Virus record (IMG/VR): IMGVR_UViG_3300028829_004116
Span: 28,256 to 92,255 of that record
DNA from: a virus
DNA: 64,000 nt
Strand: one strand, 5' to 3'
The notes beneath the pieces are model-generated. The model was not told the DNA's origin. It ran no database searches and was given only the letters and a program-made list of their open reading frames with translations. Both the position numbers and the translations under genes were made by a program. This document shows positions 9,124-64,000 of the stretch, piece by piece. Position 1 is the stretch's first letter. The number at the start of each line of letters is the position of its first letter.

Positions 9124-9267
9124 ATGTGGCGAGATACTTTAAAAAAGGATGCTGAAACTTATTTTAGAGAAAAAATTGCGGAGTATGAGCGCAGATTAAA
9201 AAGGGACCCGAAAGATGTTAAGGCTAAAAATGCCTTGAAATATTATAGAGAACAATTAGGTGAGTAA
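9124..9267 (+). CDS. Small protein with W-x-D-x-L-K leader variant (47 aa, MWRDTLKK...), not in ORF track
   Basis: Manually translated; fills the gap between neighbouring genes. Confidence 0.6.
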   Translation: MWRDTLKKDAETYFREKIAEYERRLKRDPKDVKAKNALKYYREQLGE

Positions 9268-9381
9268 ATGACACGATGTAATTTTTTAGATACTTGGTTT
9301 GATGAACAGTCAAAGATAATAGATAAAAAAGAAGAGAAAACTAAGAAAGATTTTGTAACTGGAAAGGAGGTAAAAAAATGA
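9268..9381 (+). CDS. Small hypothetical protein (37 aa, MTRCNFLDTWFDEQ...)
   Basis: Manually translated; abuts the upstream stop and is ATGA-coupled to the next gene. Confidence 0.55.
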   Translation: MTRCNFLDTWFDEQSKIIDKKEEKTKKDFVTGKEVKK

Positions 9382-9713
9382 GTTGGCAAGATATATTAAA
9401 AGTTCATCCCATGTCACTAAAAGTTATAGGTTCTGCTATAAGACAGGCAATTAGTAATCATTTAGAAGAAACGGGTAGAAAAGATGTGTATGAGTTTGAA
9501 GAAATTATAAAACTGTTTCCTAAATATTTAGAAATAACGGGACAAAAATCTAAAGCAAGGTTAAAAAATAAATTTGAAAAGATGGTGATGAGATATATTC
9601 CCGAAGGATATGGAAAATTAAAAGAATTATTAACCGATAAAAAAGGTTATGCTATACCGAGTTCTATTGAATCCGCAATTACCGGATGGAAAAAAATAGG
9701 TGAAAACGAATGA
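9378..9713 (+). CDS. MSWQDILK-leader protein
   Basis: GGAGG RBS; shared leader. Confidence 0.75.
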   Translation: MSWQDILKVHPMSLKVIGSAIRQAISNHLEETGRKDVYEFEEIIKLFPKYLEITGQKSKARLKNKFEKMVMRYIPEGYGKLKELLTDKKGYAIPSSIESAITGWKKIGENE

Positions 9714-9886
9714 GTTGGCAGGACATTCTAAAATACAATCGAAAACATTATGTTCGTGCAGGTCGTAAGCATAATGACCCTAAAACAATTAGTGTTCATC
9801 AAAAAATTTTAGAAATAGTTAATGACCCTAATATTCCAAGAAGAGAATTAGGTGCAAGAATAAAACAAATTTTAGAAGAGGAATAA
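9710..9886 (+). CDS. MSWQDILK-leader protein (58 aa), not in ORF track
   Basis: GGTGA RBS, ATGA coupling, identical leader peptide. Confidence 0.75.
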   Translation: MSWQDILKYNRKHYVRAGRKHNDPKTISVHQKILEIVNDPNIPRRELGARIKQILEEE

Positions 9887-34704: not shown

Positions 34705-34725
34705 TTTAATCACCTCAATAATAAG

Positions 34726-34809
34726 TGGCGGGGGTGGGATTCGAACCCACGAAGCAATACGCACCGGAATTTAAGCCCGGCCCCTTTGACCGTACTTGGG
34801 AACCCCGCC
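34726..34809 (-). tRNA. tRNA-Leu(UAA)
   Basis: Cloverleaf: acceptor GGCGGGG/CCCCGCC, anticodon loop CTTAAAT, long variable arm, GTTCGAATC. Confidence 0.93.
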
Positions 34810-34821
34810 CTTATTATTTAT

Positions 34822-35130: not shown

Positions 35131-35294
35131 ATTATTTGGTTATCCTTTTTAATGGCGATAACTTTCCATTCTGTTGCATAAATTTGGTTGGTATTATTAT
35201 CAACCTGCAAGTTACAACACTTACATATTCTATATCCCCGTAGGGTTTCTTTCAGTATTAATACTGTATCGCAGTTAAAACATTTTATCATCAT
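35112..35294 (-). CDS. Small Zn-ribbon protein
   Basis: CFNC...CKCC; GAGG RBS. Confidence 0.55.
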   Translation of the reverse strand: MMIKCFNCDTVLILKETLRGYRICKCCNLQVDNNTNQIYATEWKVIAIKKDNQIIWRNII

Positions 35295-35313
35295 TTTAAT
35301 TACCTCGAATAGG

Positions 35314-35388
35314 TGGACAATACCGGATTTGAACCGGTGGTCGCTCGGTTATGAGCCGAGTGCATTAACCATACTATGCTAATTGTCC
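35314..35388 (-). tRNA. tRNA with CAU anticodon (elongator Met or Ile2)
   Basis: GGACAAT/ATTGTCC acceptor, CTCGG-CTCATAA-CCGAG anticodon arm, GGTTCAAATCC. Confidence 0.9.
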
Positions 35389-35390
35389 AT

Positions 35391-35465
35391 TGGCGGGCAT
35401 ATCAGGAATCGAACCCGAATCTTCGGCTTAGAAGGCCAAAATGCTATCCATTACACCATATGCCC
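35391..35465 (-). tRNA. tRNA-Arg(UCU) with encoded CCA
   Basis: GGGCATA/TATGCCC acceptor, anticodon loop CTTCTAA, GGTTCGATTCC, 3' GCCA. Confidence 0.93.
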
Positions 35466-44673: not shown

Positions 44674-45345
44674 ATGGATTGGAAGGATATATTAAAAATT
44701 AAAATAAACAGTTTAAGTGATGCTTCAAGGGTAGCGAGAGATTATGTGCCGGAAGATTACATAGAGGGGCATTTACTTACACAAGAAGAATATGATAAAT
44801 TGTCCAATGAGGAAAAAAGAAAATATCATAAGAAAGTTTATAATAAATACGCAAATTTAAATCTAAATAATAGAAGAGAGGCCAAATGGCATAATAACAA
44901 TGCAGGGCGAATAAAGACCGATATAGGAAATGCTATTTTAAAACCCCACCCCACAGAAGAAGAAGATTTTAAGCCAGCACCAACAGGCTTTCCGGCAAAA
45001 CCAAATAGTTATAAAAATATTTTACAAGGGTCAGGTAGAAGATTATATGGACCATATAGACTTCGTACAGCAAAAGCACACGGATATAGAGTACCGAGAA
45101 AACCACAAAGAAAAAGGGGTCCAAAAAGAAAAAGGGGTGCAAAAAAGGGTTCAAAACACGAGTCTACAAAATTAAGAGAAAAACGACAAAACGAGAAAAT
45201 CAACCAAATCATCGTTGATTATTTTAAAATCTATAACAGTAGGTTTGGCCGTAATCCCACTTTACAAGAAATAGCAAATGAAGAGGATAGACCCCTTACA
45301 GTAGATGAAATTGAATCGTTTAAGAGATATGCACAGGGTAGGTAA
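44674..45345 (+). CDS. MDWKDILK-leader basic protein
   Basis: Leader; K/R-rich; C-terminal RNPTLQEIA HTH-like segment. Confidence 0.75.
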   Translation: MDWKDILKIKINSLSDASRVARDYVPEDYIEGHLLTQEEYDKLSNEEKRKYHKKVYNKYANLNLNNRREAKWHNNNAGRIKTDIGNAILKPHPTEEEDFKPAPTGFPAKPNSYKNILQGSGRRLYGPYRLRTAKAHGYRVPRKPQRKRGPKRKRGAKKGSKHESTKLREKRQNEKINQIIVDYFKIYNSRFGRNPTLQEIANEEDRPLTVDEIESFKRYAQGR

Positions 45346-45350
45346 TTAAA

Positions 45351-46031
45351 ATGGGTTGGCAGGATATTTTAAAGTCGAAAGAGGAAAGTCGAAAACAAGA
45401 ACGAGATAAACTTTTAGAGGAATTAGTAAATAATGTTCATTTTTTTAACCCTAATATAGGAATATTTCCTATTGTTCGACGGCCTGTGCCGAGATTGAAA
45501 CCCTTAGTAAGAAGTTTAGAGTTTATGAGGCCCATTAAAGATGATATAAAATTTTTCCCATTCGGTGAACGAAAGATTTATGTCGAATATACTTTTGAAG
45601 TATTTGGGATAGAATGTGGTATTAGTTATAGGTTAAGAGAATTAGGTCAAATTTCTGAAGATAATTTTATTACGATAGGCGGAAATGAAGTATGTGTGAA
45701 GGCTACCAGTGAAATGACGAATGGAGATTTTTTAACTACCTTAGTGTATGCGGTAAAAAATAATGCTATTCCCGACATTGTAAAATTCGTCACCTATTCG
45801 TCATCCAAAGGACATAAATATCGTGTGGACTCACATGTTTATGATTCCAGTGAAAAGAATTATAAAAGGTCTTTTCTTATTCAACTTTACACGGAATGGG
45901 AAGAATCTGATTTATTTGATAATAATGAAGATATAAATATGGAATTAATAAATAACAGTTTTAATTTAAATGATATTAATTTCTGGCTTGCTCAATTTGA
46001 AGTGCCTGAAGACATTTTAGGGAGATGGTAA
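45351..46031 (+). CDS. MGWQDILK-leader protein, paralog of 46033-46728
   Basis: Shared LEFM.P, C.KAT.EMTNGDF, PE..LG.W. Confidence 0.8.
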   Translation: MGWQDILKSKEESRKQERDKLLEELVNNVHFFNPNIGIFPIVRRPVPRLKPLVRSLEFMRPIKDDIKFFPFGERKIYVEYTFEVFGIECGISYRLRELGQISEDNFITIGGNEVCVKATSEMTNGDFLTTLVYAVKNNAIPDIVKFVTYSSSKGHKYRVDSHVYDSSEKNYKRSFLIQLYTEWEESDLFDNNEDINMELINNSFNLNDINFWLAQFEVPEDILGRW

Positions 46032-46032
46032 T

Positions 46033-46728
46033 ATGGGTTGGCAAGATATATTAAAGAATAGAAGACGAGATACGGCTCAAGAGATACTAATTTCCTTCCG
46101 AGAATTTACACCAATACGAGAAATAACTAAAGAGGAAGAAGACCGAGTTCTTTCATCTATGTATTTCGACACTAGGCCCCTTGTTTATAAAAGAACTTTA
46201 GAATTTATGAAACCCTTTGATGAAATTAAGAGAGATGGTTTAGATTTTGTTTTTAAATTCGATATAGAGGGAGTGCCTTTTACATATAAATTGCCGTTTT
46301 TACCGGATAGTGCGGCTCGTGCGGGTAGAGGTATTGGTGAAAAAGCATTCGATAATTTCCCGAAAATGGACTCAACTGGAATGCGTTTTTGCATAAAGGC
46401 CACAAGAGAAATGACAAATGGGGATTTTATGGTTACACTTCTTCTCGCAAGTGAAAATAACTCATTACCTCCAATTCTTACTCTTCCCGCATATGTAGAA
46501 AGACACATGCCGGAAACTAAAATGCACGAATCATTATCTTTCCCCACAGACAGCAATGTGAGAACCATTTTTGATGGAAATGAACTCGATTACAAGACAA
46601 CACTTTTAGAGAGAATATGGGAACATGTAGAAGGTCTTGATGAAATGGACTGGCCGAAGGTTTTCATTTGGAAGATTAATGAACAGTTAAAGGAATACAT
46701 ACCTGAAGAATTATTAGGGAAATGGTAA
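46033..46728 (+). CDS. MGWQDILK-leader protein, paralog of 45351-46031
   Basis: Shared LEFM.P, C.KAT.EMTNGDF, PE..LG.W. Confidence 0.8.
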   Translation: MGWQDILKNRRRDTAQEILISFREFTPIREITKEEEDRVLSSMYFDTRPLVYKRTLEFMKPFDEIKRDGLDFVFKFDIEGVPFTYKLPFLPDSAARAGRGIGEKAFDNFPKMDSTGMRFCIKATREMTNGDFMVTLLLASENNSLPPILTLPAYVERHMPETKMHESLSFPTDSNVRTIFDGNELDYKTTLLERIWEHVEGLDEMDWPKVFIWKINEQLKEYIPEELLGKW

Positions 46729-46729
46729 T

Positions 46730-48094
46730 ATGGGTTGGCAAAATATATTAAAGGCTTTTGACCGAGACGAATGGGAAAAATTTTTTAACGAACACATAAA
46801 CCCACAATTAAAAGGGTGGGAAATTAGGCCATTCTGGTCTGGAGATGTAGTTTTTCAAAGTTTAACCGAGAACTTAAGCATTAGGGGTAATATTCCAAAA
46901 GAGATATTTGTTCGAAATCCAAAAGACGGGGGTTTCTTTAATATTAACCTAATCTTGAGGTTACTAAAACCTTCTATTCGTTCATTAGATTGGTTTTTAG
47001 AAGTTACTAAAAATCTCGATGTAAAGTATGAGAGTGATTTAATTACTGTCACAGGCGAATCCTCGTTAAGTTATACTATTATGTCAACTCAACTGAAATC
47101 GAGTGGCTGTTATGAAGTGGAAACTGAAGAAGGTTATAATATTTGTATAGAAATAGATGGTGCAAAACCAGTAGGAGATAATATATTAGCATTAACATTG
47201 GCGTTGTTAAATGATGAATCAACAAGAAATGAAATTCAAGGTATTGACGAATATTTAGACCGAACCGGAGAGGTTGAATGTCAGATTTGTGGCAATTACG
47301 AACAAGTAGCATTTGGTGATTATAATTATGAATTTAGATGTGATGCATGTGGGGCTTCCTCAAATGTTGAACAAATTAATTTTGCTCCCGGTTTTTCAGC
47401 CGAAACAACTGTTTTATACGCAGAAGGACCTGAGGGGACATTTGACCCACAGTATAATCATGCTTATGGTGATAAATTTTATCAGGGTAATAAGTTATTT
47501 TCACTATATGACCCTGAAAATTATGAATTATTTGTAGTAGGTTATGGTGATAATGACTTTAACGATATATTGTTTGAGACAAATGTGGAGGGCGTATATG
47601 AAATAGAACATGGTACGGAACTATATTCGGAAGACGGTTATGAAATTGATATAGAAACTGTATATAATAATATTGGAGACGAAAATGAATTTATTAATTT
47701 TGCGAAAGAATATTATGATATGGAATTAATTTTAAATACTTTAGAGTATGAGGAAGACGGAGAATATTGGACCAAAGATGGAAAAAAATACGAACTCGTT
47801 GACGGAGAAATGATTGAACAGGATAAAGATGAAATTACAAAGAACTTAAGTAGTAAAGCCGTTCTCCCTATTAATATGAAGTGGACAGACTATCTTAAAA
47901 AAACTTCTAAAACAGAGGCTGGGGATTGGGAATCTGCCTTAAAGAGTTTTATTTCCGATGGTAAAAAATTGGGAATACCTTTGTCGGTAATGGAATTATT
48001 AAAGTTGGCTAAAGAAGCAACGACTTCGCAAAGCGAAGGTTTTGAAACCCTACACCGACCTACCTTCAGTGAGGAGGAAGAGGAAGATGTTTGA
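46730..48094 (+). CDS. MGWQNILK-leader acidic protein with CI...GD...LALLND domain and Zn ribbon
   Basis: ICIEIDGAKPVGDNILALTLALLND; CQICG/CDACG; internal MKWTDYLK at 47876. Confidence 0.75.
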   Translation: MGWQNILKAFDRDEWEKFFNEHINPQLKGWEIRPFWSGDVVFQSLTENLSIRGNIPKEIFVRNPKDGGFFNINLILRLLKPSIRSLDWFLEVTKNLDVKYESDLITVTGESSLSYTIMSTQLKSSGCYEVETEEGYNICIEIDGAKPVGDNILALTLALLNDESTRNEIQGIDEYLDRTGEVECQICGNYEQVAFGDYNYEFRCDACGASSNVEQINFAPGFSAETTVLYAEGPEGTFDPQYNHAYGDKFYQGNKLFSLYDPENYELFVVGYGDNDFNDILFETNVEGVYEIEHGTELYSEDGYEIDIETVYNNIGDENEFINFAKEYYDMELILNTLEYEEDGEYWTKDGKKYELVDGEMIEQDKDEITKNLSSKAVLPINMKWTDYLKKTSKTEAGDWESALKSFISDGKKLGIPLSVMELLKLAKEATTSQSEGFETLHRPTFSEEEEEDV

Positions 48095-49208
48095 ATGGGA
48101 CCGACAAGGTGCATTGGCATTATTTGGGGAATATAAGGCTTTTTGGGGACCAAGTAAAAATGCTGAATTTGGCATTACAGGTAGGCCTGATGCTAATACA
48201 AGAAAAGTTAATGCTAAGTCTGTTTATCTTTCAGTAGAGAATCATGGCCGTGTCGGAATGTCAAGAAAAAATATAGACTTTTCCGGCGGTGGTGCAATTT
48301 TAGAAAAACTTTTATCTTTCTTAGAGCGAGAAACTTTTCTTGAAGAAGACCTTCTCGATTTTGAAGACATGGAAAGAGATTTAGACAGATTAGAAACGAG
48401 GCCAAATAGAAATCCCGCTAATATAACATTTAGAACTATGACCTCCTTCAAACCTCCAGCAACCGATGATGATGAACCTGAAATTAAAAGAGGTGTAGTC
48501 GCTGGACATTTTTTAACAATACCTTACTGGGAATACCGAAAATGGAAGGCTGATAAAATAAATGACTCCTTTCCGAGTGACAGACCTAAAGAGGAGTGGT
48601 ATGCGTTTTCTAAGGATGGTGGTGAGCCACCAAAGAATAAAGCAAAACCTCCTCTATGGCAAGCATTATTGGGTGAGAAAAATAGCCTTAGAAAACTTGT
48701 AAATGATATTAAAGAATTAGTTGAAAAGAGTATGGGGCCGGGCGGCGCACCAATAAAAATTGATGTTAATGCTAATTTAGGCCCAAGAACTGGAGAAAGG
48801 TTGGCCGCTATTGCTGGGCTAAATAAGGCAATACGAGAAGTTATGGCTGACGGGACTATTTACACAAAGGGTAGAAGATTTCCCGTGAAGAGTAGACTTA
48901 ACGATGCGGTGAGAAATAAAACATTTAATATTAGTTCTTCGGACCTTGCCATACTCGTAGAAACCTGTACTGTTAAGATTGACGGTGAGCGTGTTGAGAT
49001 TGACGAAGTGGTTAATTACGAGAAGATAAATAATATTACAATGCGTTTCCCGAAGAGTAATAAGACACTTAATAATGTAGTTCGAGCAGTAATGGGCGAA
49101 CAAATGGAAACATTCAAAGTTCCCGGTAGCACTGAGGGAGATGGAATTACTCTCAAGCAACTCGATGCTATGGAAGCGTTTAGTAATTTAATGAAGGCGA
49201 TAAAATGA
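48087..49208 (+). CDS. Hypothetical protein
   Basis: Probable start 48087 after GAGG; long ORF. Confidence 0.7.
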   Translation: MFEWDRQGALALFGEYKAFWGPSKNAEFGITGRPDANTRKVNAKSVYLSVENHGRVGMSRKNIDFSGGGAILEKLLSFLERETFLEEDLLDFEDMERDLDRLETRPNRNPANITFRTMTSFKPPATDDDEPEIKRGVVAGHFLTIPYWEYRKWKADKINDSFPSDRPKEEWYAFSKDGGEPPKNKAKPPLWQALLGEKNSLRKLVNDIKELVEKSMGPGGAPIKIDVNANLGPRTGERLAAIAGLNKAIREVMADGTIYTKGRRFPVKSRLNDAVRNKTFNISSSDLAILVETCTVKIDGERVEIDEVVNYEKINNITMRFPKSNKTLNNVVRAVMGEQMETFKVPGSTEGDGITLKQLDAMEAFSNLMKAIK

Positions 49209-49756
49209 ATAACAGTAGAGGACCGTTAAATAGTAGTGGAAATTGGTGGTCGATTATTAAGGCATACGAAGATTTACAAGAAGAAAGTTATCAGGCCGCT
49301 TACATTGTAGTTGAAGAAATTATCAACTCTATCGGTAATGAAGAAATTTCCGAATTATTAACAGAAATGTTAGATATTTGGGATGGAGATAACTTAAGAG
49401 TTCACGCTACAGGTGGACTAGTATCTGGTGGAACTCAACATGTGGGTTATGCTCAAGAAAATAGATTAACCCCCGCACAGCAAACAAGAATGGATGAATT
49501 AGAGGAACAAGTGAAAGAGGGAACTATTACCAGAGTAGATAATAAAGAATATGAAAGATTAGTAACTTTAGCAGGTTTCGCATTACAAAAACCCCAATCA
49601 GCCGGAATAATTATGTTTGCTGTAAGAACTCCGGATTCAGTATATGCGACTGAACCTACACAAATTTATTTTAATGAAGAGGGCGATGATAAGTTTTCAA
49701 CCACCACAATAGCGGAGTTTATTAAAGATTTAAATGAGGTAATAGAAAATGCGTAA
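49205..49756 (+). CDS. Hypothetical protein with NWWSIIK leader variant
   Basis: ATGA-coupled. Confidence 0.65.
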   Translation: MNNSRGPLNSSGNWWSIIKAYEDLQEESYQAAYIVVEEIINSIGNEEISELLTEMLDIWDGDNLRVHATGGLVSGGTQHVGYAQENRLTPAQQTRMDELEEQVKEGTITRVDNKEYERLVTLAGFALQKPQSAGIIMFAVRTPDSVYATEPTQIYFNEEGDDKFSTTTIAEFIKDLNEVIENA

Positions 49757-50411
49757 AATTCGTAAGTCTTGCCCTCTTTGTAATCATCCTGATAGGGATA
49801 ACTTAGAAATAGAAATTCTTGAAGGTCGCATGGATGCGAATGCTCTTGATAGAGAAGAAGGTTGGAGAGCCGGAACTACAAGAAAACATATGCAGGAACA
49901 TTTGAATGCGTATCACGATGATTCAAATGATAAGTGCGCTTTATGTGTAGCACCAAATAGAAAGGATTTGGAAGCGGCAATTGTAGACGGACATATGAAA
50001 CCGAGTAAGGTTGCAGAATATTTAGAAGTCGGTGTCGATGCTATTAACCTACATATGAAAAAACACCTCAAACCTATCGTTCAACAATCGGCGGCATTAG
50101 ATGTAGCCCGTGTAGAATTGAATGAGATTGACTTACTTTCACAAAATGTTTCAATGTTGCAGGGCAAGATTCAACAATTTATCACAGACAATGAAGATTT
50201 AGATTTCAAGACAGTGGATTCTTTGGTAAAACTTAGTAAAGAAATTCGTGAGTCGCTAAAGTATGCGCTGGAATTTAAGGGCAAATTAATACATAAAAGA
50301 GAAGAAACAGTGGTTATTCAACAGATTGAAGTTATACAAAAGGTTCTTATAGAAAGATACCCCGAAGTATGGACTGAGATACGAGATGATATTGCGGAGA
50401 GATTAGCATGA
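49749..50411 (+). CDS. Duplicated C-x2-C...H-x3-H Zn/HTH protein with coiled coil; terminase small subunit candidate
   Basis: Two repeats CPLCNHP...KHMQEH and CALCVAP...LHMKKH; HTH plus coiled-coil layout typical of TerS. Confidence 0.5.
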   Translation: MRKIRKSCPLCNHPDRDNLEIEILEGRMDANALDREEGWRAGTTRKHMQEHLNAYHDDSNDKCALCVAPNRKDLEAAIVDGHMKPSKVAEYLEVGVDAINLHMKKHLKPIVQQSAALDVARVELNEIDLLSQNVSMLQGKIQQFITDNEDLDFKTVDSLVKLSKEIRESLKYALEFKGKLIHKREETVVIQQIEVIQKVLIERYPEVWTEIRDDIAERLA

Positions 50412-50875
50412 GTTGGTGGAATATAATTAAACAAGATTGGGAACTTTATGCTATGCAATTTTCACTTCAATTATCTTTTGATAATTTAACTGCCTATCGA
50501 ATCACCCTTAACCAAGAAGAACAAAACTATTTTAAGGAAATATTTAGTAAAACACCAGCAATGCACCATTTATTTATTGCACCTCATAGTGCCTCTATAA
50601 GAGTTAATGAAATACCAGAAAAAATAAATAATTTAGATGAAGAAGTTATGTCTATGACAGGTATGGGTAGACTAAGTGATAAAGAAAAATTAGATTTAGT
50701 AAGGTTGCGACCAAACACATACTCTTTAATTGAGCATGATGGTGGTTTTAGCAACCCATCTCAATTAAAATATGTTATGGGAAATGAGTTAATATTCCGC
50801 CGTACAGTAATTGCTATGGAAAATTCAGTACAACAGATTAAAGATAATAAAAGAGATGTCGGGTTTATTCCGTAA
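50408..50875 (+). CDS. MSWWNIIK-leader protein
   Basis: Leader; ATGA-coupled. Confidence 0.7.
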   Translation: MSWWNIIKQDWELYAMQFSLQLSFDNLTAYRITLNQEEQNYFKEIFSKTPAMHHLFIAPHSASIRVNEIPEKINNLDEEVMSMTGMGRLSDKEKLDLVRLRPNTYSLIEHDGGFSNPSQLKYVMGNELIFRRTVIAMENSVQQIKDNKRDVGFIP

Positions 50876-50899
50876 ATATAAAAATGGGGAGAGATTACA

Positions 50900-51112
50900 A
50901 TGAGTTGGAAAGATATACTAAAGGAACACCCGATGGAACGCAAAAAGCGGTTGAAAAAAGAAAAGAAAGAAATACGAAGAAGAGAAGAGGCTAATTGCAA
51001 ATGTCCTAGAAAACCAGATGGTAGTCACGATTTAGAAAGAAATTGCATGTGCGGGTTTTTCCAAGATACCAGTAATGATGGAGAAAAATTAGATTTTAAG
51101 TTGTTTGAATGA
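50900..51112 (+). CDS. MSWKDILK-leader small basic Cys protein
   Basis: Leader; CKC...H...CMC. Confidence 0.7.
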   Translation: MSWKDILKEHPMERKKRLKKEKKEIRRREEANCKCPRKPDGSHDLERNCMCGFFQDTSNDGEKLDFKLFE

Positions 51113-51121
51113 GGGATTAGC

Positions 51122-51745
51122 ATGAATTGGTTTGATATTCTAAAAATTAAATTTAAGCCAGTAGACCGTGATAGACCTGCACCTAATATTAAAGTGGAAC
51201 CGTCATTATCAGGTGAAGTAGGGAGTTATAATTCGGAAACAGGTGAAACCGTTATTTCAGCCAATCCCGATGTGACTCCTGAACAACTTGCAGATACATT
51301 AGCACATGAATCAACACATGAAGTCCAATTTGGTACAGAACCCATATTAAGAGAAATTATAAATAATTCAGCAAATAGTATTATTGCATTACTTTATGCT
51401 GCAAAGGCTACACCGATAGAAGAATTAACCGATGAAGTAGTAAATGATTTACTTTCAGATGTAGAACTGGGCTTAGGTAATTCTATAAAATTATTCCTCG
51501 AACAAGAATTTACAATAGAAACACAAGCCTACTCATTGGATAGAAATTTTGAAACTCGACAAGACCGAAATAAATTTGCTGGACATATTATAGACCATTT
51601 TGAGCGAAGAATTTTAATGTCGATGAAGGTAATTGATTTAGAAGATGAAAAGGTAGAAATACTGTTGAGGGGATTGATAGAAACTCTCGAACCCATACTT
51701 TTAAGGATTTTTAGAACTTTTGTAATAAGGGAGGGTAGACAATGA
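51122..51745 (+). CDS. MNWFDILK-leader zincin-like metallopeptidase
   Basis: GSY...TLAHESTH...E.QAY (HExxH plus downstream E). Confidence 0.7.
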   Translation: MNWFDILKIKFKPVDRDRPAPNIKVEPSLSGEVGSYNSETGETVISANPDVTPEQLADTLAHESTHEVQFGTEPILREIINNSANSIIALLYAAKATPIEELTDEVVNDLLSDVELGLGNSIKLFLEQEFTIETQAYSLDRNFETRQDRNKFAGHIIDHFERRILMSMKVIDLEDEKVEILLRGLIETLEPILLRIFRTFVIREGRQ

Positions 51746-52101
51746 AGTGGCAAGATATTTTAAAATACGACGACATACCGGCTATGTTTGAAGACCTGCG
51801 TAGAGAAATTGTAGAATACTTCCCACCTCGTTATATTGGTGATGCCAACCAACCAACTTCAATAATAGGTATTATATTTTTATTAATAGACCATTTAGAA
51901 AGTCCTATGTATGCCGAGCCGAGAACACAGGGAGTATTACGAACATTAATGAGAAAAATTGATAAAGCGCAAGACCAATTTTCCGAAGACGAGGGACATG
52001 ATGAAGCCTTTGTAGATGGCAATACTTTATTTTATGCAACTGTTTCTGGAATAATTGACAAAATTAGTGAAGCGTTAAAAGTAAGGGAGGAATATACATG
52101 A
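51742..52101 (+). CDS. MKWQDILK-leader protein
   Basis: Leader; ATGA-coupled. Confidence 0.7.
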   Translation: MKWQDILKYDDIPAMFEDLRREIVEYFPPRYIGDANQPTSIIGIIFLLIDHLESPMYAEPRTQGVLRTLMRKIDKAQDQFSEDEGHDEAFVDGNTLFYATVSGIIDKISEALKVREEYT

Positions 52102-52304
52102 GTTGGGAAACTATCCTTAAACTTGATTGGCGAGAAATGCTCGACTCTTATATAACCGAAGACAGTTTATTTCAAAACATTTATAAACACCTTACCGACA
52201 GTCTTGGTTATAACGCACCGTCGAAAGACGAGGTTATTGACTATTTAGAAGAAAATTACGAAAGACATAAATTATGGTCAAACTTATGGAGTGAAAAAAA
52301 ATGA
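52098..52304 (+). CDS. MSWETILK-leader protein
   Basis: Leader; ATGA-coupled. Confidence 0.7.
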   Translation: MSWETILKLDWREMLDSYITEDSLFQNIYKHLTDSLGYNAPSKDEVIDYLEENYERHKLWSNLWSEKK

Positions 52305-52657
52305 ACTGGAAAAATATACTAAAAAACGCAACCGTACCACAAGATTACGATGAAAAACTAATTGCCGCCATGATGAAGCGAGGTAATGAAAAGCCTAACT
52401 TTGGTTATATTAATTTTGACAATGCAAGGCAGTTGGCTTCATTTAAACTTAATGAGCCATTGAATGTGACGACAGAATATCGAAAAGTGGCAATGCACAT
52501 GAGAGATTTATTGGGAGAAGCATTGGCTGGAACTTACAACCATCGAGATTTCGATGCTAGCGAGTACCTCAATAATCCCGAATCTTATGTTAGTGATGCT
52601 CAAACACAATCTAGTTTTCCTATAGAAAAAATTGCTGAGAGAATTGGCGGAAGATAA
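52301..52657 (+). CDS. MNWKNILK-leader protein
   Basis: Leader; flanked by a direct repeat. Confidence 0.7.
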   Translation: MNWKNILKNATVPQDYDEKLIAAMMKRGNEKPNFGYINFDNARQLASFKLNEPLNVTTEYRKVAMHMRDLLGEALAGTYNHRDFDASEYLNNPESYVSDAQTQSSFPIEKIAERIGGR

Positions 52658-52696
52658 GGGAGATTACGAAAGACATAAATTATGGAGTGAAAAAAA

Positions 52697-52984
52697 ATGA
52701 ACTGGGAAAATATACTTAAAGCAAAATTTATGAAAGATACCGAAGGAAAATATACTGTTTCTGATGCTTATGAACCTAGAGAATTTGATAAAATCTTACA
52801 TGACCCAGCAAAACAGACTGAAAGGAATCAAATTACAGTAGATAGATTTCCTCACAAACATACAAGTGAGGGTCATCAATATTATGAAACAGATTATGGT
52901 TTTTCAGTCTGTATGCAATGTAAAGTAAAGGTTCGACCTAAAGTTCACAAAGAAATAACAGGAAGAGCAGCATCAGGATATTAG
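52697..52984 (+). CDS. MNWENILK-leader protein with H-x-H...CxxC
   Basis: Leader; HKH...CMQC. Confidence 0.7.
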   Translation: MNWENILKAKFMKDTEGKYTVSDAYEPREFDKILHDPAKQTERNQITVDRFPHKHTSEGHQYYETDYGFSVCMQCKVKVRPKVHKEITGRAASGY

Positions 52985-52996
52985 GTAAGTGAAAGA

Positions 52997-53218
52997 ATGA
53001 CATGGAAAGATATTACTAAAAACCTTACACCGGAACAAGTAAGAACTATGGAACGAAGTGTAAAAAAAACAGGCGTTTGCCGAAGATGTAAAAGAAGTGT
53101 TAAAACTTGGGAACCATGTCCTATGAATTTACCCCCACTACCAATAAAACCTAATTGTCCAATGAAGACTGAATACAAGGACTCTAATAGTAGGGGTCCA
53201 TTTACTGCGAGGGATTAA
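52997..53218 (+). CDS. MTWKDITK-leader small Cys protein
   Basis: Leader; CRRC...C...C. Confidence 0.7.
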   Translation: MTWKDITKNLTPEQVRTMERSVKKTGVCRRCKRSVKTWEPCPMNLPPLPIKPNCPMKTEYKDSNSRGPFTARD

Positions 53219-53219
53219 C

Positions 53220-53432
53220 TTGTGGTTCGATGTATTGCGTAAGAAAAGTAAAGCCCGACGAAAAAAGGGTAGTAAGCAATATAAGAAAAAGAAATCTAAA
53301 ACAAAGAAAGACGCTTGTTATCGCAAGGTAAAAAGTCGTTATAAAAAATGGCCCTCCGCCTACGCTTCAGGTGCTTTAGTCCAATGTCGTAAAGTTGGTG
53401 CGGCTAATTGGGGTAATTCAAAAAAGAAGTGA
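53220..53432 (+). CDS. MWFDVLRK-leader, very basic protein with DACY.KVKSRY..WPSAYASGALV.CRK motif
   Basis: Motif recalled from marine viral hypothetical proteins; TTG start. Confidence 0.65.
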   Translation: MWFDVLRKKSKARRKKGSKQYKKKKSKTKKDACYRKVKSRYKKWPSAYASGALVQCRKVGAANWGNSKKK

Positions 53433-53436
53433 TACT

Positions 53437-54258
53437 ATGAATTGGCAGGAAATACTCAAGGAAGAATGGTTTAATAATCTTCCTAAGAGTAAGCAAAAAC
53501 AACTTAATTCCGAACCTTCATTCAATGTTAGTATTCCTGAAATGTCATTTCCCGATAACGAGAAGGAAATACCAAAGGTTCTAAAAATTATGGAAGGTCA
53601 AGATTTAGATAAAAAAACTATTCACAATTTAGACAAAAATAACCATAAGATGATGCTCGACATTGTTGAGGAAAAAATGTCCGATTGGAAGGGTTTTCTT
53701 GAAGATTTAGATATATATTCGTTTCGCCTAAAAAAGAAATACGGTAGAAAGAGACCTTATTTAGTTTCGGATAAAATTAAATCTTTAACAGATACAGATG
53801 ACACACCTTCTTTTCCAAGCGGTCACGCCATTGACGCACATGCGTTGGCAAAGGTTCTCGGTGAGAAATATCCTGATAAGAAAAAAGAACTTAACATTAT
53901 GGCAGATTCAATTTCACTTTCCCGTGTTCAAATGGGAAGTCATTATCCAAGTGATATAGAAGCAGGTAAAAAAGTAGGACTTATGCTCGCTGATGCGTAT
54001 TTAGATATTTCTAAATCTTGGGAAGATATTTTACAAAGTGGCGATAACTTTAAGAGAGAGAAGGCGGAAGGCTTACATGGGTGGTTTTCTCGACGGGGCG
54101 GAAAGGGTAAATCAAAAGGTTGGGTAAGTTGTTCTTCATGTGGAAAGAAAAACGGACCTAAACCTTGTGGAAGAAAAGACGCTTCAAAGGGAACAAAGAG
54201 AAGATGCCGCCCAACTTGTGGCGCGTGTAAAACTTACAAAAGGAGGAAAGGAAAATGA
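53437..54258 (+). CDS. MNWQEILK-leader PAP2/vanadium-haloperoxidase-family phosphatase fused to a basic Cys-rich domain
   Basis: K-x6-RP, PSFPSGH, SR-x5-H-x3-D motifs; second leader-like SWEDILQ before the C-terminal domain. Confidence 0.8.
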   Translation: MNWQEILKEEWFNNLPKSKQKQLNSEPSFNVSIPEMSFPDNEKEIPKVLKIMEGQDLDKKTIHNLDKNNHKMMLDIVEEKMSDWKGFLEDLDIYSFRLKKKYGRKRPYLVSDKIKSLTDTDDTPSFPSGHAIDAHALAKVLGEKYPDKKKELNIMADSISLSRVQMGSHYPSDIEAGKKVGLMLADAYLDISKSWEDILQSGDNFKREKAEGLHGWFSRRGGKGKSKGWVSCSSCGKKNGPKPCGRKDASKGTKRRCRPTCGACKTYKRRKGK

Positions 54259-54599
54259 GTTGGCAAGACATATTAAAAAGGGGAAAGCGTAAAAAAATTA
54301 ATATGCCTCTTTTTAGAGAAGCCCTCGGAGTCGCTACGGCTACCCTAAACACATTTACTCTTTCAGAAATTTTACCACTTGCACAAGAATTATATAAAGA
54401 GTATTTACTTAGGGATGGTATTTTTACTAAGGCTGGACCTGCCACCCATCACGCTAAAATCGTTTTTAGTACCCGTGGTAGAGCCGGTACATTTTTTGGT
54501 ACGGTCATTAATAATCTAGGGGTTCATCGTTCTACTACCCGAAGGAAAAAACTACCATCGGGAGCAGCAGAAACTATTTACGAAAAAGTGGAGGAATAG
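54255..54599 (+). CDS. MSWQDILK-leader protein
   Basis: Leader; GGAGG RBS; ATGA-coupled. Confidence 0.75.
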   Translation: MSWQDILKRGKRKKINMPLFREALGVATATLNTFTLSEILPLAQELYKEYLLRDGIFTKAGPATHHAKIVFSTRGRAGTFFGTVINNLGVHRSTTRRKKLPSGAAETIYEKVEE

Positions 54600-54601
54600 A
54601 A

Positions 54602-55018
54602 ATGAGTTGGCAAGATGGTCTAAAGAAAAAACAAACTAAGTTTGGTTTTCAAAGAACTTTGGGCGGTGAAAGTATTGCTAATCTTGACCCGATTGAAGAA
54701 GCGGTAAGACAAAAAGAGGAGGCCGACAAATCTTTATCCGAAAGAAAAAGGCGTGAAGCAGAAAGGTTGGCAGTAGCAAATCGTAAGGGACAAGAAAATT
54801 TTAAAAAGGAAATTACAAGTACAGATTTAAGAGTTGACCGATTTGAAGAATTGATAGAACAAATTCAAATAATGATTGATTTAATAAATGAAAGAGAAAG
54901 AGACCCCGATAATAGTTATAGAGTAAAAATTGCTGAGGCATATAATACTATTCTGGGTTCATTCAACGAAGTAAGAGAAGATATGTTTCAGTTTAAAATA
55001 GAACTTGATTTGGAATAA
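54602..55018 (+). CDS. MSWQDGLK-leader coiled-coil protein
   Basis: Leader; GGAGG RBS. Confidence 0.7.
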   Translation: MSWQDGLKKKQTKFGFQRTLGGESIANLDPIEEAVRQKEEADKSLSERKRREAERLAVANRKGQENFKKEITSTDLRVDRFEELIEQIQIMIDLINERERDPDNSYRVKIAEAYNTILGSFNEVREDMFQFKIELDLE

Positions 55019-59455: not shown

Positions 59456-60036
59456 AGAGTATGAAGATGAAGGATGGAACAGTAATTACTTTTCCTGATA
59501 AAATATACTCGGATGATGAACTTGTAGATTTATGGGCCGCAGTTGGTTGGAAACATATACCGAGAAGAGAAAGACTTACTATTGCGGAAATTAGTCGTGT
59601 AGAACCCGATGGGTATTATATTGCTATGGATGGTGAATATATTGTTGCTCATTGTGGTTGGGTTGATAGAGGAGATATTTTTCAAACCTGTGGGACAAAG
59701 GTAAGTAAAGGTTATACATTTAGAAGTTATAAAGGTGAAGGCATATCCAATGTTCTTCGTCAAAAAAGACTTGAGGTAATAGGTAGTAATCCCGCCATGT
59801 CGTTTATTAATAATTCAACCGAAGGTTGGTTAAAAAGTTTAATGAAAGAAGGCTGGGAAATAGGAAGTGCTGAAGATTTACCAGAACAGTATCAAGACCT
59901 TGCTCAACAATTATCCGACTCTTATACTATCCTAATATTAAATATTAAATCAAAGGCTATGAAAAAGGCTTGGGAAATTTTAAAGAATCGTCGTAGTAAA
60001 AAGGCATATAAGCGTAAAAAGGAGAGGAAAGAATAA
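59452..60036 (+). CDS. GNAT-fold acetyltransferase-like protein
   Basis: YYIAMDGEYIVAHCGW...YKGEGIS acetyl-CoA motif A-like; C-terminal AWEILK. Confidence 0.55.
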   Translation: MKSMKMKDGTVITFPDKIYSDDELVDLWAAVGWKHIPRRERLTIAEISRVEPDGYYIAMDGEYIVAHCGWVDRGDIFQTCGTKVSKGYTFRSYKGEGISNVLRQKRLEVIGSNPAMSFINNSTEGWLKSLMKEGWEIGSAEDLPEQYQDLAQQLSDSYTILILNIKSKAMKKAWEILKNRRSKKAYKRKKERKE

Positions 60037-61448
60037 TGGACTTACTTACAGAAATGGATATGAAAGCCTCCGATGGTAATTTTGAATATTTCTTTACAAA
60101 AATTCTCGGAATGGAAATGGCAGACTTTCACCGTGATTGGCTACAATCAGTTCACGACACTCAAAGAACTGTAATTATTTGTTCTCGTGACCACGGAAAA
60201 TCTGTATTCTTTCACTCTTGGTGTATCTATCAATTAATTTTTCAACCTCCGCCGTATCAAATGATTTACATTTCATCAAACCAAAAGCAGACAATGGTTC
60301 ACATGAAAGACATTGACCGAATGTTCACAAACATTCCTGCCCTAAGAAAATATAAACCTAAAGCAGGTTGGGCTGTCGGCTCAATGAGATTAACAAACGG
60401 AAATGAAATACTTGAGCGTTCCGTTGGTTCACAAATTCGTGGACTTCACCCTCAAGAGATTATTATTGACGACCCGATGAAGGAGTTTTCTGTTGCCGCT
60501 ATACAGCGAGTCACAGATTGGTTTTGGGGTGACATGATTCCTACTCTTCACCACACCGCTACTTTGCGAATGGTCGGTACACCTTTCACATACACTGATA
60601 TATTTGCCGCATTGGAGGAAAACCCTGAATATGATGTGCAACGCTATCCAGCGATAAATGAAACAGGGGATGCTCTTTGGCCCTCCCGTTGGGATATAGA
60701 TTCTTTAGAAAAGAGAAGGCGAGAAATCGGTTCTTCTAAGTTTACAAGAGAATATCTTTGCATACCAATTTCATCCAACACGATGTTATTTGGAAAAGAA
60801 TTTATCGACAAGTCTAAAGACCGAACAAGTAAGTTATCGTATCATGGCAATACTGAGGCATTCAAATACTACATTGGCTATGACCCCTCACTTTCAGCAG
60901 ACGGGGATTACACAGTAATGATGGTTATTGAAGTAGATGAGGATATGAATAAAAAGGTGGTTTGGATGGTAAGAGAAAAAAATATGGATTTCCGTTCACA
61001 CATCACCCGCATTACAGACCTTTGCGAGAGATACAAACCCGAAGTTGTAATGATTGAAACTAATACATTCGCAAAGTCCTTCGCTATGGAATTGCGTGAC
61101 ATATCCGACTTTCCCGTTAAAGAATTTACAATGCACCGTAAGAAGAAAGAGGAAATTATTCTTAACTTGCAGATGAATTTGGAGAATAATAAAATTATAC
61201 TACCCTATGCGGATGAAAAAGCAAAGGGTGTTTCCGACGCAATTATACAAGAACTCGAAGCATTCGGTATTAGCAGTACGGGAAAAATTGAAGGTTTGGG
61301 CGCACACGATGATATTGTTATTGCCCTCGCTTTGGCTAATCACGCCACAAAGTCTTTTAATGATGCTTTCATAGACATAGACAGTAGCGGGTTATTTGGA
61401 ACACCAAAACAAGATTTCGGAGGTGGAATATATGGAATTAATATGTAA
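60036..61448 (+). CDS. terL: Terminase large subunit
   Basis: SRDHGKS Walker A, IIIDD Walker B, VGTP, IGYDPS and HDDIVIALALA nuclease motifs. Confidence 0.95.
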   Translation: MDLLTEMDMKASDGNFEYFFTKILGMEMADFHRDWLQSVHDTQRTVIICSRDHGKSVFFHSWCIYQLIFQPPPYQMIYISSNQKQTMVHMKDIDRMFTNIPALRKYKPKAGWAVGSMRLTNGNEILERSVGSQIRGLHPQEIIIDDPMKEFSVAAIQRVTDWFWGDMIPTLHHTATLRMVGTPFTYTDIFAALEENPEYDVQRYPAINETGDALWPSRWDIDSLEKRRREIGSSKFTREYLCIPISSNTMLFGKEFIDKSKDRTSKLSYHGNTEAFKYYIGYDPSLSADGDYTVMMVIEVDEDMNKKVVWMVREKNMDFRSHITRITDLCERYKPEVVMIETNTFAKSFAMELRDISDFPVKEFTMHRKKKEEIILNLQMNLENNKIILPYADEKAKGVSDAIIQELEAFGISSTGKIEGLGAHDDIVIALALANHATKSFNDAFIDIDSSGLFGTPKQDFGGGIYGINM

Positions 61449-62807: not shown

Positions 62808-64000
62808 ATGGGACTAAGAGATAGATTTAGAACACTAATAAGGAGAAGAACACCTATTCCTACTGAAAAGGAAGTATATAATTTAGGTATTCAAGAGCGC
62901 AGATACCCCCAACATTACGCAGGGCGGTATTTATACGATACGGCTAAAAACTCAACTGTTGTTCGAACTTGTTTGGTTCAACTTAAAAATGAGGTTTTCC
63001 GCCGAGGGTATGAATGGAAAAAGGCATTTGACATGAAGTGTAATAACTGTGGATATGAACACCAAAAACATGTAGAAGAGTGTATGAACTGCGATTCTAC
63101 TGATTTGAGAACTCCAAATTACAGTCAAAAGGTGTATGCTGAAAATTTCTTTAAGCACCATGTAAATGATTCACACCAGTTATTTATTGACATTCTAAAG
63201 GAACTTGAAACTGACCTCAATGTTATGGATGATGCGTTCCTGATTTTAGTTAAGGATTATTTCTTAGAAGAAAATGGTGAAATAGCCATGTCTAAAATAA
63301 ATGAAATTTATAGAGGCGACCCAACGACAATGTTTATTGAAGTTGATGAGGATGGAGATAGGGGGCATGAAAGATATACCTGTGTCACACATAGAGATTT
63401 TATTTCTGAGGAAAGATATGAAAAGTGTGGGATATGTGGGAGTAATTTGCATCCTATCGAATTTACAAATAAAACCGCTCAAGCAGAACAACATTATATT
63501 ACAGGTGAGGTGGTTCATTTTAGTAAGTATTCACCTACAAGATTATACGGCCACCCACCTGTGATTACCCTATTTAATTACATATTTACCCTACAGGCTA
63601 TGGAGTCTTATATCAGCACTTCATACCAAAAGATGAGAACACCAAAGGGTATTCTTGCTGTGCAGACGAATAACATGGAGTCGCTGGTAAAGTATTGGAA
63701 GGGTGTTAAGGAAAAGTTGGAACAAGACCCACACTATATTCCTATCATGGGTATTGAATCCGAAGGTGGTTCTCGTGGTTCAGTTGAATGGATTCCGTTT
63801 ATGAACAGTCTAAAAGAAATGGATTATACTGCCGTTAAGGAAGACTTGAGAACAAGAATCTCCGCTTTCTACGGTGTAAGTAATATATTCATGGCAGATA
63901 ATACTGCTTCCGGTGGACTTAATTCGGAAGGTATGCAAATTCTCGTTACAAATCGTGCTGTTGAAATGGCTCAAGGTGTCTATAACAAATATTTATTTCC
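62808..64000 (+). CDS. Portal protein (3'-truncated), not in ORF track
   Basis: GGAGG RBS; frame open to the window end; LYGHPP, TPKGIL, ISAFYGVS portal-like motifs; follows terminase. Confidence 0.85.
   Translation, partial: MGLRDRFRTLIRRRTPIPTEKEVYNLGIQERRYPQHYAGRYLYDTAKNSTVVRTCLVQLKNEVFRRGYEWKKAFDMKCNNCGYEHQKHVEECMNCDSTDLRTPNYSQKVYAENFFKHHVNDSHQLFIDILKELETDLNVMDDAFLILVKDYFLEENGEIAMSKINEIYRGDPTTMFIEVDEDGDRGHERYTCVTHRDFISEERYEKCGICGSNLHPIEFTNKTAQAEQHYITGEVVHFSKYSPTRLYGHPPVITLFNYIFTLQAMESYISTSYQKMRTPKGILAVQTNNMESLVKYWKGVKEKLEQDPHYIPIMGIESEGGSRGSVEWIPFMNSLKEMDYTAVKEDLRTRISAFYGVSNIFMADNTASGGLNSEGMQILVTNRAVEMAQGVYNKYLF

Follow-up and report, generated by a model that had tools for sequence, protein, structure and literature searches.

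A short N-terminal tag on unrelated proteins of a group B magrovirus: a candidate capsid-loading peptide

In a group B magrovirus, an ocean archaeal virus, 22 of the 69 plus-strand genes, about a third of the capsid strand, begin with the peptide M-(x)-W-x-[DN]-I-L-K, and the two overlapping halves of this tag recur in the virus's own head proteins. We give an even chance to the reading that the tag is a capsid-loading peptide of the kind represented by the capsid-targeting sequence (CTS) of phage T4, removed by the prohead protease. Magroviruses rank among the most abundant viruses of archaea in the surface ocean, and no function is assigned to most of their genes (PMC5434244). We found no mention of the tag in the literature searched.

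Results

The window analyzed here is a stretch of 64,000 nucleotides (positions 28,256 to 92,255) of the 92,255 bp contig IMGVR_UViG_3300028829_004116, and 19 of the 22 tagged genes lie inside it; three further tagged starts are located upstream, at genome positions 3194, 15829, and 16701. The preliminary description of the window had listed 16 tagged starts in the array and three more at 9124-9886, and the motif or a close variant is indeed present in all 19, the latter three starting at 9124, 9378, and 9710. The tagged genes and their context are as follows (window coordinates, unless genome positions are given).

9124..9267, plus strand: tagged ORF, 47 aa, M-W form, basic
9378..9713, plus strand: tagged ORF, 111 aa, basic
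9710..9886, plus strand: tagged ORF, 58 aa, basic
44674..45345, plus strand: tagged ORF, 223 aa, basic (pI 10)
45351..46031, plus strand: tagged ORF, 226 aa, paralogue of the 46033 gene
46033..46728, plus strand: tagged ORF, 231 aa, paralogue of the 45351 gene
46730..48094, plus strand: tagged ORF, 454 aa, acidic, two CxxC pairs
49205..49756, plus strand: ORF, 183 aa, tag-like W-x-x-I-I-K at residues 14-19, after a 12-residue extension
50408..50875, plus strand: tagged ORF, 155 aa, variant I-I-K, without a homologue among about 300 related loci
50900..51112, plus strand: tagged ORF, 70 aa, basic
51122..51745, plus strand: tagged ORF, 207 aa, HExxH motif, weak DUF6782 (putative metallopeptidase) match
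51742..52101, plus strand: tagged ORF, 119 aa, acidic
52098..52304, plus strand: tagged ORF, 68 aa
52301..52657, plus strand: tagged ORF, 118 aa
52697..52984, plus strand: tagged ORF, 95 aa, CxxC
52997..53218, plus strand: tagged ORF, 73 aa, variant I-T-K, basic, CxxC
53220..53432, plus strand: tagged ORF, 70 aa, TTG start, variant V-L-R-K, pI 10.8, weak DUF5872 match
53437..54258, plus strand: tagged ORF, 273 aa, soluble PAP2 phosphatase domain and basic Cys-rich C-terminal domain
54019..54042 (approximate), plus strand: internal tag-like W-E-D-I-L-Q at the junction of the PAP2 and C-terminal domains
54255..54599, plus strand: tagged ORF, 114 aa, basic
54602..55018, plus strand: tagged ORF, 138 aa, variant G-L-K
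60036..61448, plus strand: large terminase (context)
62808..63998, plus strand: portal protein (context), cut by the window end
Genome 3194-5617, upstream of the window, same strand as the array: 807-aa tagged protein
Genome 5621-5857, upstream of the window, same strand as the array: p78, a conserved protein of 78 aa
Genome 8418-9578, upstream of the window, same strand as the array: S78 protease-scaffold
Genome 9571-10818, upstream of the window, same strand as the array: capsid protein

The tag had been reported on one strand only, and this holds across the contig: none of the 61 minus-strand genes is tagged (Fisher p = 1.4e-7 versus the plus strand), with a chance expectation of about 0.012 matches per 130 genes. 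The array lies directly 3' of a divergent control region and continues into the packaging and head genes without any gap of more than 140 nt. Each tagged start has a Shine-Dalgarno-like GGAGG or GGTGA 5-12 nt to its 5' side. The tag itself is short and amphipathic, and it is found 22 times at the N-terminus versus twice internally.

The tag is conserved as a peptide, and its conservation ends at residue 8. Among 399 unique contexts, Ile is encoded by ATA, ATT, and ATC and Leu by all six codons in near-background proportions, and the information content falls from 2 bits in the tag to about 0.1 bit just after the Lys codon. This free choice of codons, with conservation confined to the stretch up to the Lys, shows selection at the peptide level, as had been proposed from the synonymous codon variation within the array. 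Orthologues of the ORF at 52098 likewise keep W, I, L, and K, and their x positions vary.

Behind the tag, the proteins diverge as first described: after trimming, nearly all of the 22 are unrelated, with one clear paralogue pair (45351/46033) and one weak pair left. Nearly all are soluble and many are basic; their median pI is 8.8, compared to 5.7 for the untagged plus-strand proteins. No transmembrane segment was found in the tagged proteins (no 19-residue Kyte-Doolittle window above 1.6), and a membrane or secretion signal peptide was rejected because the same analysis revealed no hydrophobic core. The cargo genes turn over fast, their modules are shuffled among relatives, and at least 336 distinct sequences follow the tag in the relatives sampled. 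The domain of the 52098 ORF is also found fused behind other tagged modules; fused homologues keep the tag between domains, and in homologues of the 53437 ORF the PAP2-junction site reads W-x-x-I-L-K. Two enzymes had been named among the cargo. The PAP2 phosphatase is borne out by Pfam (E = 3e-13); for the metallopeptidase, the HExxH motif is present, but the DUF6782 match is below threshold. Pfam and PHROGs otherwise gave almost no matches to the cargo, and searches of the ESM Atlas with it gave no usable lead.

A scan of related genomes for enrichment, suggested in the preliminary description, showed that related IMG/VR contigs are rich in the tag, again on one strand. Related terminase loci carry 197 tags on the terminase strand versus two on the opposite strand (counts that are not phylogenetically independent), and four long related records have 4-9 pattern matches each versus none for a reversed control pattern. 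In 596 Gb of prokaryotic genomes, there were 36 scattered single matches, which is the chance level, and none in Poseidoniales; a host signal was therefore rejected, and the tag is virus-specific. No close relative was found in the GenBank phage collection. The nearest cultured virus, HVTV-1, has a capsid protein of 26% identity and the same order of head-module genes, and it has no tag. Sister A-type magroviruses carry a tag of their own, M-T-A-F-D-x-A-W-x-L-L-K.

The Lys and the residue after it are under tight constraint. Lys is present in 215 of 230 unique tags, which are not phylogenetically independent, against a background of 8.8%; in 13 of the 15 tags without it, Lys comes one residue later, and Arg is not accepted in its place. 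Pro never follows the tag Lys, either in 454 B-type tags (20.6 expected) or in 207 A-type tags (15.3 expected), and by cluster the count is likewise 0 in 336 for B and 0 in 156 for A. These tag counts, too, are not phylogenetically independent. One position further on, Pro makes up 6-9% (B) and 30-36% (A) of residues.

We also searched for tag matches at scaffold, capsid protein, and protease sites, and its halves were found at the scaffold C-terminus, the capsid protein N-terminus, p78, and the protease/scaffold junction. The protease-scaffold ends in M-x-W-x-[DEQ]-[VIAL] in 41 of 41 unique sequences, and the p78 family (74-81 aa) has the same ending; both C-termini thus hold the first half of the tag without the Lys. 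The second half, without the Trp, occurs in the capsid protein and the scaffold: residues 25-30 of the capsid protein read [DN]-x-[LI]-[LM]-K-[AS], kept down to 44% identity, with K29 invariant in 40 sequences, and the protease/scaffold junction has h-L-K followed by an acidic run. A [DN]-h-[LM]-K motif is also present in the middle of p78. Across the proteome, [DNST]-h-h-K is not enriched inside proteins, so the case for the head-protein sites is their conservation. By Pfam, the protease belongs to Peptidase_S78, with a His and a Ser that line up with H65 and S114 of HK97 gp4; in HK97 gp5, K103 immediately precedes S104, the mature N-terminus.

The scaffold terminus matches the virus's own tag in B-type magroviruses. 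In A-type viruses, the scaffold C-terminus resembles the A-type tag weakly and L-L-K is absent from the capsid protein N-terminus, so scaffold mimicry is not a general rule. Between B and A, tag and scaffold C-terminus covary in part: the residue that precedes Trp is small and polar in the tag and the scaffold of B alike and tiny in the two elements of A, but the A-type scaffold and tag otherwise differ. An AlphaFold2 model of the capsid protein with 40 relatives, made to place I-L-K relative to the HK97-fold N-arm, reached a mean pLDDT of 40.

Discussion

The preliminary description had proposed a removable label that targets proteins to the capsid, and this is partly supported. The sequence fits the proposal in the scaffold C-terminus, the [DN]-h-L-K sites, the S78 protease, the Lys, and the lack of Pro, and from it we infer packaging, cleavage, and injection. 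The tag may be a portable peptide of two overlapping halves. Its first half, M-x-W-x-[DE]-h, copies the C-termini of the protease-scaffold and of p78 and, as the procapsid assembles, probably docks cargo to the partner that these bind, the capsid protein or else the scaffold core. The second half, [DN]-h-L-K, repeats the head-protein site, and the HK97-type (S78) prohead protease probably cuts it behind the Lys, which would free the cargo inside the head, to exit with the DNA at infection and so reach the host. Several observations count against this reading. The putative cut motif is not enriched inside proteins overall, the A-type scaffold and capsid protein show little or nothing of their tag, and the location of the array next to the divergent control region would allow early as well as late expression. 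Asp seldom follows the tag Lys directly, although it is frequent behind the Lys of the scaffold junction, and the one-residue slip of the Lys suits an acceptor no less than it does the register of a protease.

An acceptor Lys is what a second reading, raised as an alternative in the preliminary description and held unlikely here, would call for. The tag could be a substrate motif of a viral ubiquitin-like (Ubl) system consisting of a 68-aa Ubl candidate, a ThiF-type E1, and a JAB protein, with W-x-x-I binding the Ubl like a LIR or SIM and the adjacent Lys as the acceptor; such a system would pick out some 20 late proteins with neither an E2 nor an E3. Atg8-interacting motifs have W-x-x-[ILV] as their core, and a Lys that is strictly needed, not replaced by Arg, and free to slip by one residue is what one would expect of an acceptor beside a docking site. 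Pfam confirms the E1 (E = 4e-14) but gives no match for the Ubl candidate. Although 12 of 14 long tag-bearing contigs encode the E1, this co-occurrence is uninformative because it is clade-wide, and with the E1 nearly universal in these contigs, the phyletic pattern cannot separate the tag from the Ubl system. The Ubl reading also gives no account of tag halves that lack the Lys at the scaffold and p78 C-termini or lack the Trp at the capsid protein and scaffold sites, and it leaves unexplained the exclusion of Pro, the near-exclusive N-terminal location, and the tags between fused domains. A two-function tag seems very unlikely: here the viral E1-Ubl-JAB system would read the same W-x-x-I and Lys on some 20 late proteins, again without E2 or E3, and conjugation would be coupled to capsid loading or to release within the capsid. 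If true, this would amount to a ubiquitin-like sorting system that a virus encodes and uses in archaea.

It is also unlikely that the tag is a propeptide or processing signal only, one that the viral S78 protease or a protease of the host removes so that activation is timed or polyproteins are split, and that it plays no part in capsid loading. Cleavage, and not targeting, is what the strict Lys, the lack of Pro after it, and the tags at domain junctions bear on. However, a propeptide of eight residues would hardly inhibit 20 or more folds that are unrelated to one another, a cut site has no need of the M-x-W half common to the scaffold C-terminus, and the tag is missing from host genomes. S78 proteases, moreover, act inside proheads.

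Quite unlikely, in our judgment, is a docking helix for another hub (the viral chaperonin, the portal or terminase, or a replication or assembly compartment) or an N-degron that sets protein lifetime. A short, amphipathic tag conserved as a peptide would suit such roles, and the virus encodes a chaperonin, but proteins of 47-70 aa hardly need one; the most abundant late proteins (capsid protein, portal, and terminase) have no tag, and the motif sharing with scaffold and capsid protein and the Pro exclusion are left unexplained. Finally, a nucleotide- or translation-level signal (downstream box, mRNA structure, or promoter) or a remnant of duplicated-gene ancestry is scarcely credible: despite the Shine-Dalgarno-like element common to the starts and the A/T-rich tag codons, the free use of Leu codons, including first-position changes, already contradicts the former, the near-complete lack of similarity among the unrelated trimmed cargo domains led us to reject the latter, the sequence flanking the tag on both sides is not conserved, and highly expressed head genes have no tag.

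If the capsid-loading reading is true, about a sixth of the genes per genome, along with hundreds of ORFan families throughout the clade, would gain a role as virion cargo, probably delivered to the host. It would also predict the cleavage specificity of an archaeal-virus prohead protease and give a simple rule to find candidate host-takeover or anti-defence proteins in uncultured viruses, and a working tag could possibly serve as a protein-loading handle for HK97-fold capsids. The question is testable without host culture.

Comparison with known systems

Encapsulin cargo-loading peptides are short conserved peptides that dock diverse cargo inside an HK97-fold shell; they are usually C-terminal and uncleaved, and they belong to cellular compartments, not virions. 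We rejected this class for the tag, which is N-terminal and has a consensus different from their G-S-L type. In phage P1, the N-terminal 30 residues of DarB direct the protein and a reporter into the capsid for host delivery (PMC9024508); in contrast to the tag, this is a longer signal on one protein, with no motif common to a gene array. Giant phages (SPN3US, phiKZ-like) have many head-internal ejection proteins that the prohead protease cuts at one common motif as the head matures (PMC7411985, PMC10052503). The propeptides of these proteins are long and unlike one another, and a common eight-residue address has not been described for them.

In 2013, Duda and colleagues are said to have described a C-terminal capsid-binding peptide on the HK97 protease. 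Scaffold C-terminal capsid-binding peptides are known from the 80alpha scaffold, SaPI1 CpmB, and P22 (PMC12749128). As with the tag, a short terminal peptide decides what an HK97-fold procapsid encloses, and CpmB in 80alpha/SaPI1, like p78 here, is a second small protein with the scaffold's peptide. In the tag, however, the peptide is copied to the N-termini of many proteins that have no relation to one another, and a putative cut site adjoins it.

The T4 CTS is an N-terminal peptide of about 10 aa on non-essential, often basic internal proteins and is removed by the gp21 prohead protease (PMC9958956). It ends at the head protease consensus site, which is also used in the capsid and scaffold proteins, and the cargo exits with the DNA (PMC9958956). 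According to the statement in PMC9958956 that cites Mullaney and Black 1996, it suffices to load foreign proteins into the scaffolding core. Both are short N-terminal peptides on several, often basic proteins, 22 ORFs in this virus. They differ in the protease (gp21 versus an HK97-type S78) and in the cut, after Glu in T4 and, as proposed, after Lys in the tag; the T4 CTS is conserved on IPII and IPIII, whereas the tag is on 22 genes per genome, has an archaeal host, and is known here from sequence alone. To our knowledge, the tag resembles no T4 CTS sequence. By this comparison, the tag is best regarded as an analogue of T4-type CTSs, not as a member.

Genomic setting of the tagged genes

The window spans bases 28,256-92,255 of a virus contig of 92,255 bp. 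Its minus strand holds the genes for a family B DNA polymerase, a Cpn60-type chaperonin, and a class II ribonucleotide reductase, as well as three tRNA genes. The plus strand carries the large terminase and portal genes and, upstream of the window, the genes for a protease-scaffold fusion and an HK97-type capsid protein, with an ATP-dependent DNA ligase gene lying within the head module. The features are as follows; genome coordinates refer to the whole contig (L001).

Window 34725-35465, minus strand: tRNA-Leu(TAA), tRNA-Met(CAT), and tRNA-Arg(TCT), as reported for group B magroviruses
Window 44674-55018, plus strand: block of tagged genes (the array)
Genome 8418-9578, plus strand: protease-scaffold fusion
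Genome 9571-10818, plus strand: capsid protein

For group B magroviruses, which are viruses of Marine Group II archaea (Poseidoniales), the published description lists the reductase, tRNA-Leu and tRNA-Arg, a ligase in the structural module, and genomes of about 100 kb (PMC5434244). Because the gene content agrees with this description, we infer that the contig is a group B magrovirus. Downstream of a divergent control region, the array comes first. Its genes and those for terminase and portal follow one another head to tail, often with ATGA overlaps and with a single 139-nt gap.

An N-terminal peptide marks plus-strand genes

Every start listed as tagged in the preliminary description indeed shows M-(x)-W-x-[DNE]-[IV]-[LI]-K, exactly or with a one-residue difference (hereafter the B-type tag). 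Over the whole contig, 22 of the 69 plus-strand genes are tagged versus none of the 61 minus-strand genes (Fisher p = 1.4e-7), where about 0.012 tags would be expected by chance, and a Shine-Dalgarno-like purine run lies 5-12 nt upstream of every tagged start. Inside proteins, the motif is found only at chance level (2 observed versus 0.5 expected), so the N-terminal position is part of the signal. Other magroviruses have a sister tag in the same place, M-T-A-F-D-x-A-W-x-L-L-K (A-type; 250 unique examples in the fetched loci).

We then analyzed codon usage in 399 unique tag contexts from related contigs. Leu is encoded by all six of its codons and Ile by all three, near the background proportions of the same genes, and the per-base information content falls from 2 bits to about 0.1 bit directly past the Lys codon. 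Among orthologues of one cargo protein (cargo being the part behind the tag), W, I, L, and K are kept while both x positions vary freely. The earlier proposal that selection acts on the peptide is thus borne out: conservation is at the amino acid rather than the nucleotide level, with synonymous codons free and the downstream sequence divergent. When the 22 proteins were compared without their tags, only two paralogue pairs emerged, a clear one (45351 and 46033) and a weak one. Both members of the clear pair end in [DE]-[IL]-L-G-[RK]-W (window 46010-46031 and 46707-46728), which abuts the tag of the next gene and resembles a reversed echo of W-x-x-I-L-K. W-x-x-I-L-K also lies inside a further protein:

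Genome 17904-18941 (L001): 345-aa protein that starts with a degenerate tag and has a complete W-x-x-I-L-K at residues 103-108

Here W-x-x-I-L-K separates a basic N-terminal from an acidic C-terminal part, and the protein is possibly a two-module precursor.

Cargo proteins

The tagged proteins have a median pI of 8.8, versus 5.7 for untagged plus-strand proteins; 13 of the 22 are basic, and none has a transmembrane-like segment. As to the identities first given to the cargo, the PAP2 phosphatase stands as the only secure name (a soluble protein, Pfam E = 3e-13), whereas the metallopeptidase comes down to an HExxH motif with a sub-threshold match. One basic cargo protein has a weak DUF5872 match. 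In about 300 related loci, homologues of several array members are absent, while adjacent untagged genes have 30-70. By eye, the three signature motifs of the phosphatase all appear to be kept in the tagged PAP2 protein (window 53437-54258), which lacks a membrane segment. Allowing for differences in start calling, nearly all PAP2 homologues among the 120 listed (252 found) are tagged, and those listed come from metagenomic sources only. Since the PAP2, DUF5872-like basic, and 68-aa domains occur in differing orders behind a single tag in relatives, the cargo modules recombine.

The structural module contributes three tagged proteins (807, 288, and 336 aa), which are highly charged, rich in Lys, Arg, and Glu, and, as read from sequence, not tube- or fibre-like. 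In the closest cultured relative, HVTV-1 (L316, NC_020158), three large genes lie between portal and protease in the region at 64-73 kb, one of them encoding 1313 aa with the annotation of a zeta toxin domain protein, and the tagged 807-aa protein occupies the equivalent position. This comparison suggests that head-internal proteins are encoded at the portal-protease position in both HVTV-1 and the magrovirus.

The tag shares motifs with head proteins

The protease-scaffold fusion ends in M-[SD]-W-x-[DE]-[VIA]-[HN]-x-[LF], of which M-x-W-x-[DEQ]-[VIAL] is kept in 41 of 41 unique protease-scaffold C-termini of relatives. This stretch equals tag residues 1-6, including the Met, which is the start codon in the tag and internal yet invariant in the scaffold. 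The same C-terminal peptide is found in a second, small protein:

Genome 5621-5857 (L001): p78, 74-81 aa, conserved clade-wide, with a C-terminal peptide as in the protease-scaffold

The scaffold of a distant magrovirus group has a C-terminus nearly identical to that of p78. The acidic N-terminal helix of p78 finishes in I-L-K, and the centre of the protein holds [DN]-x-h-h-K-[SA]-G, the same motif as the N-terminal site of the capsid protein. By analogy with CpmB of SaPI1, p78 may act as a mini-scaffold or as a factor for size or assembly.

In the capsid protein, a conserved N-terminal helix and a Gly/Ser linker lead to [DN]-x-[LI]-[LM]-K-[AS] at residues 25-30. This site is present in every relative down to 44% identity, and K29 is invariant in an alignment of 40 sequences. 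Most protease-scaffold proteins likewise have h-L-K followed by an acidic run near residue 203, at the border between protease domain and scaffold. At the protease N-terminus (genome 8418-8490, L001), about 22 residues finishing in h-I-L-K-S precede the first conserved strand, and A-type relatives have D-F-L-L-K-S at the equivalent place. The segment may serve for autoprocessing or may just belong to the fold.

Peptides that keep scaffold or protease inside the HK97-fold procapsid were reportedly described by Duda et al. in 2013, and they serve this role in other HK97-fold viruses (PMC12749128). Because its two halves match the scaffold and p78 C-termini and the head-protein linker sites, respectively, the tag looks like a composite, one half shared with scaffold-type holding peptides and the other with linker sites.

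Signs of possible cleavage after the tag lysine

The protease domain belongs to Pfam Peptidase_S78, and an alignment with HK97 gp4 places its His70 and Ser127 opposite His65 and Ser114, which we take to be the catalytic pair. Cutting after Lys has a precedent in this family, since Lys103 of HK97 gp5 directly precedes Ser104, the known mature N-terminus. Lys occupies the last tag position in 215 of 230 unique tags; among the 15 with R, Q, L, or N instead, 13 have Lys one residue later versus 8.8% expected (binomial p ~2e-12, though p-values overstate independence because the tag counts include related sequences). Pro never follows the tag Lys, either in 454 B-type (20.6 expected) or in 207 A-type tags (15.3 expected), while one position further on it reaches 6-9% (B) and 36% (A). 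Its absence persists after clustering to 336 (B) and 156 (A) groups; serine-protease sites typically exclude Pro at P1'. In fused PAP2 homologues, W-x-x-I-L-K is kept at the domain junction across wide divergence, as would be expected for a site of inter-module processing.

The best reading, on which our confidence is evenly divided, is that the tag would be a removable capsid-loading tag. The capsid-targeting label of the preliminary description is partly supported: it gains from the motifs shared with head proteins, the Lys specificity, and the exclusion of Pro, and it is weakened by the putative cut motif, which is not enriched inside proteins generally, and by the A-type viruses. There, the scaffold C-terminus resembles the A-type tag solely in a tiny residue before Trp, and the capsid protein N-terminus has N-A-W-A-Y where the B-type has D-N-L-L-K. 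In both groups the capsid protein element resembles the tag of its own group, but in different halves, which suggests a common partner, while a simple cut-site model does not fit the A-type capsid protein.

Improbable in our estimate is the alternative that the tag Lys is an acceptor for the viral Ubl. The virus encodes a ThiF-type E1 (window 29444-30055, minus strand) and a candidate Ubl, and a slip of the Lys by one residue matters little for an acceptor, yet shifts the register of a protease. E1 is present in 12 of 14 long tag-bearing contigs, so the phyletic pattern does not set this reading apart from removable loading. In one IMG/VR contig (L226/G011, 184,733 bp), two copies of the E1 gene are separated by about 90 kb; this contig probably represents a ~92 kb genome assembled as a dimer rather than a larger virus.

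Distribution among relatives

A terminase search yielded 80 IMG/VR loci (67-99% identity), in which 197 tagged starts share the strand of the terminase and 2 lie opposite to it, and the tag extends to a distant group with 45% capsid protein identity. Crude clustering leaves at least 336 distinct sequences behind the tag in the loci sampled. Using a degenerate DNA tag pattern against IMG/VR, we found up to 13 tags per ~14 kb, nearly always on one strand, among the matches listed; the pattern occurs 4-9 times in each of four long related records, and a reversed control 0 times. In bacterial and archaeal genomes totalling 596 Gb, a comparable pattern matched only 36 times, singly and scattered, which is about chance level, and none of these matches is in Poseidoniales. 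Being enriched and strand-biased in relatives but at chance level in prokaryotes, the tag belongs to these viruses, and this distribution rules out that it is a signal of the host for targeting or processing.

Comparison with known systems

The tag is unmentioned in the main magrovirus papers and in the archaeal Caudoviricetes survey, and literature searches with the literal motif returned only unrelated frog peptides. These dermaseptins start with A-L-W-K-D-I-L-K, almost the tag sequence; the likeness is certainly convergence, and it shows that a peptide of this kind is able to adopt a short amphipathic helix.

The closest analogue is the capsid targeting sequence of T4, about 10 N-terminal residues on IPII and IPIII that suffice to load GFP into the core, which the head protease gp21 digests after loading (PMC9958956). 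The P1 DarB signal is a second such case (PMC9024508). The magrovirus tag lies outside the T4 family, with no known sequence similarity, another protease family, and a proposed cut after Lys. It also differs in scale, with a third of the capsid-strand genes and hundreds of cargo families, and, unlike that of T4, it is visibly derived from motifs of the virus's own scaffold and capsid protein. If the reading is true, the system would be the first of its kind from an archaeal virus.
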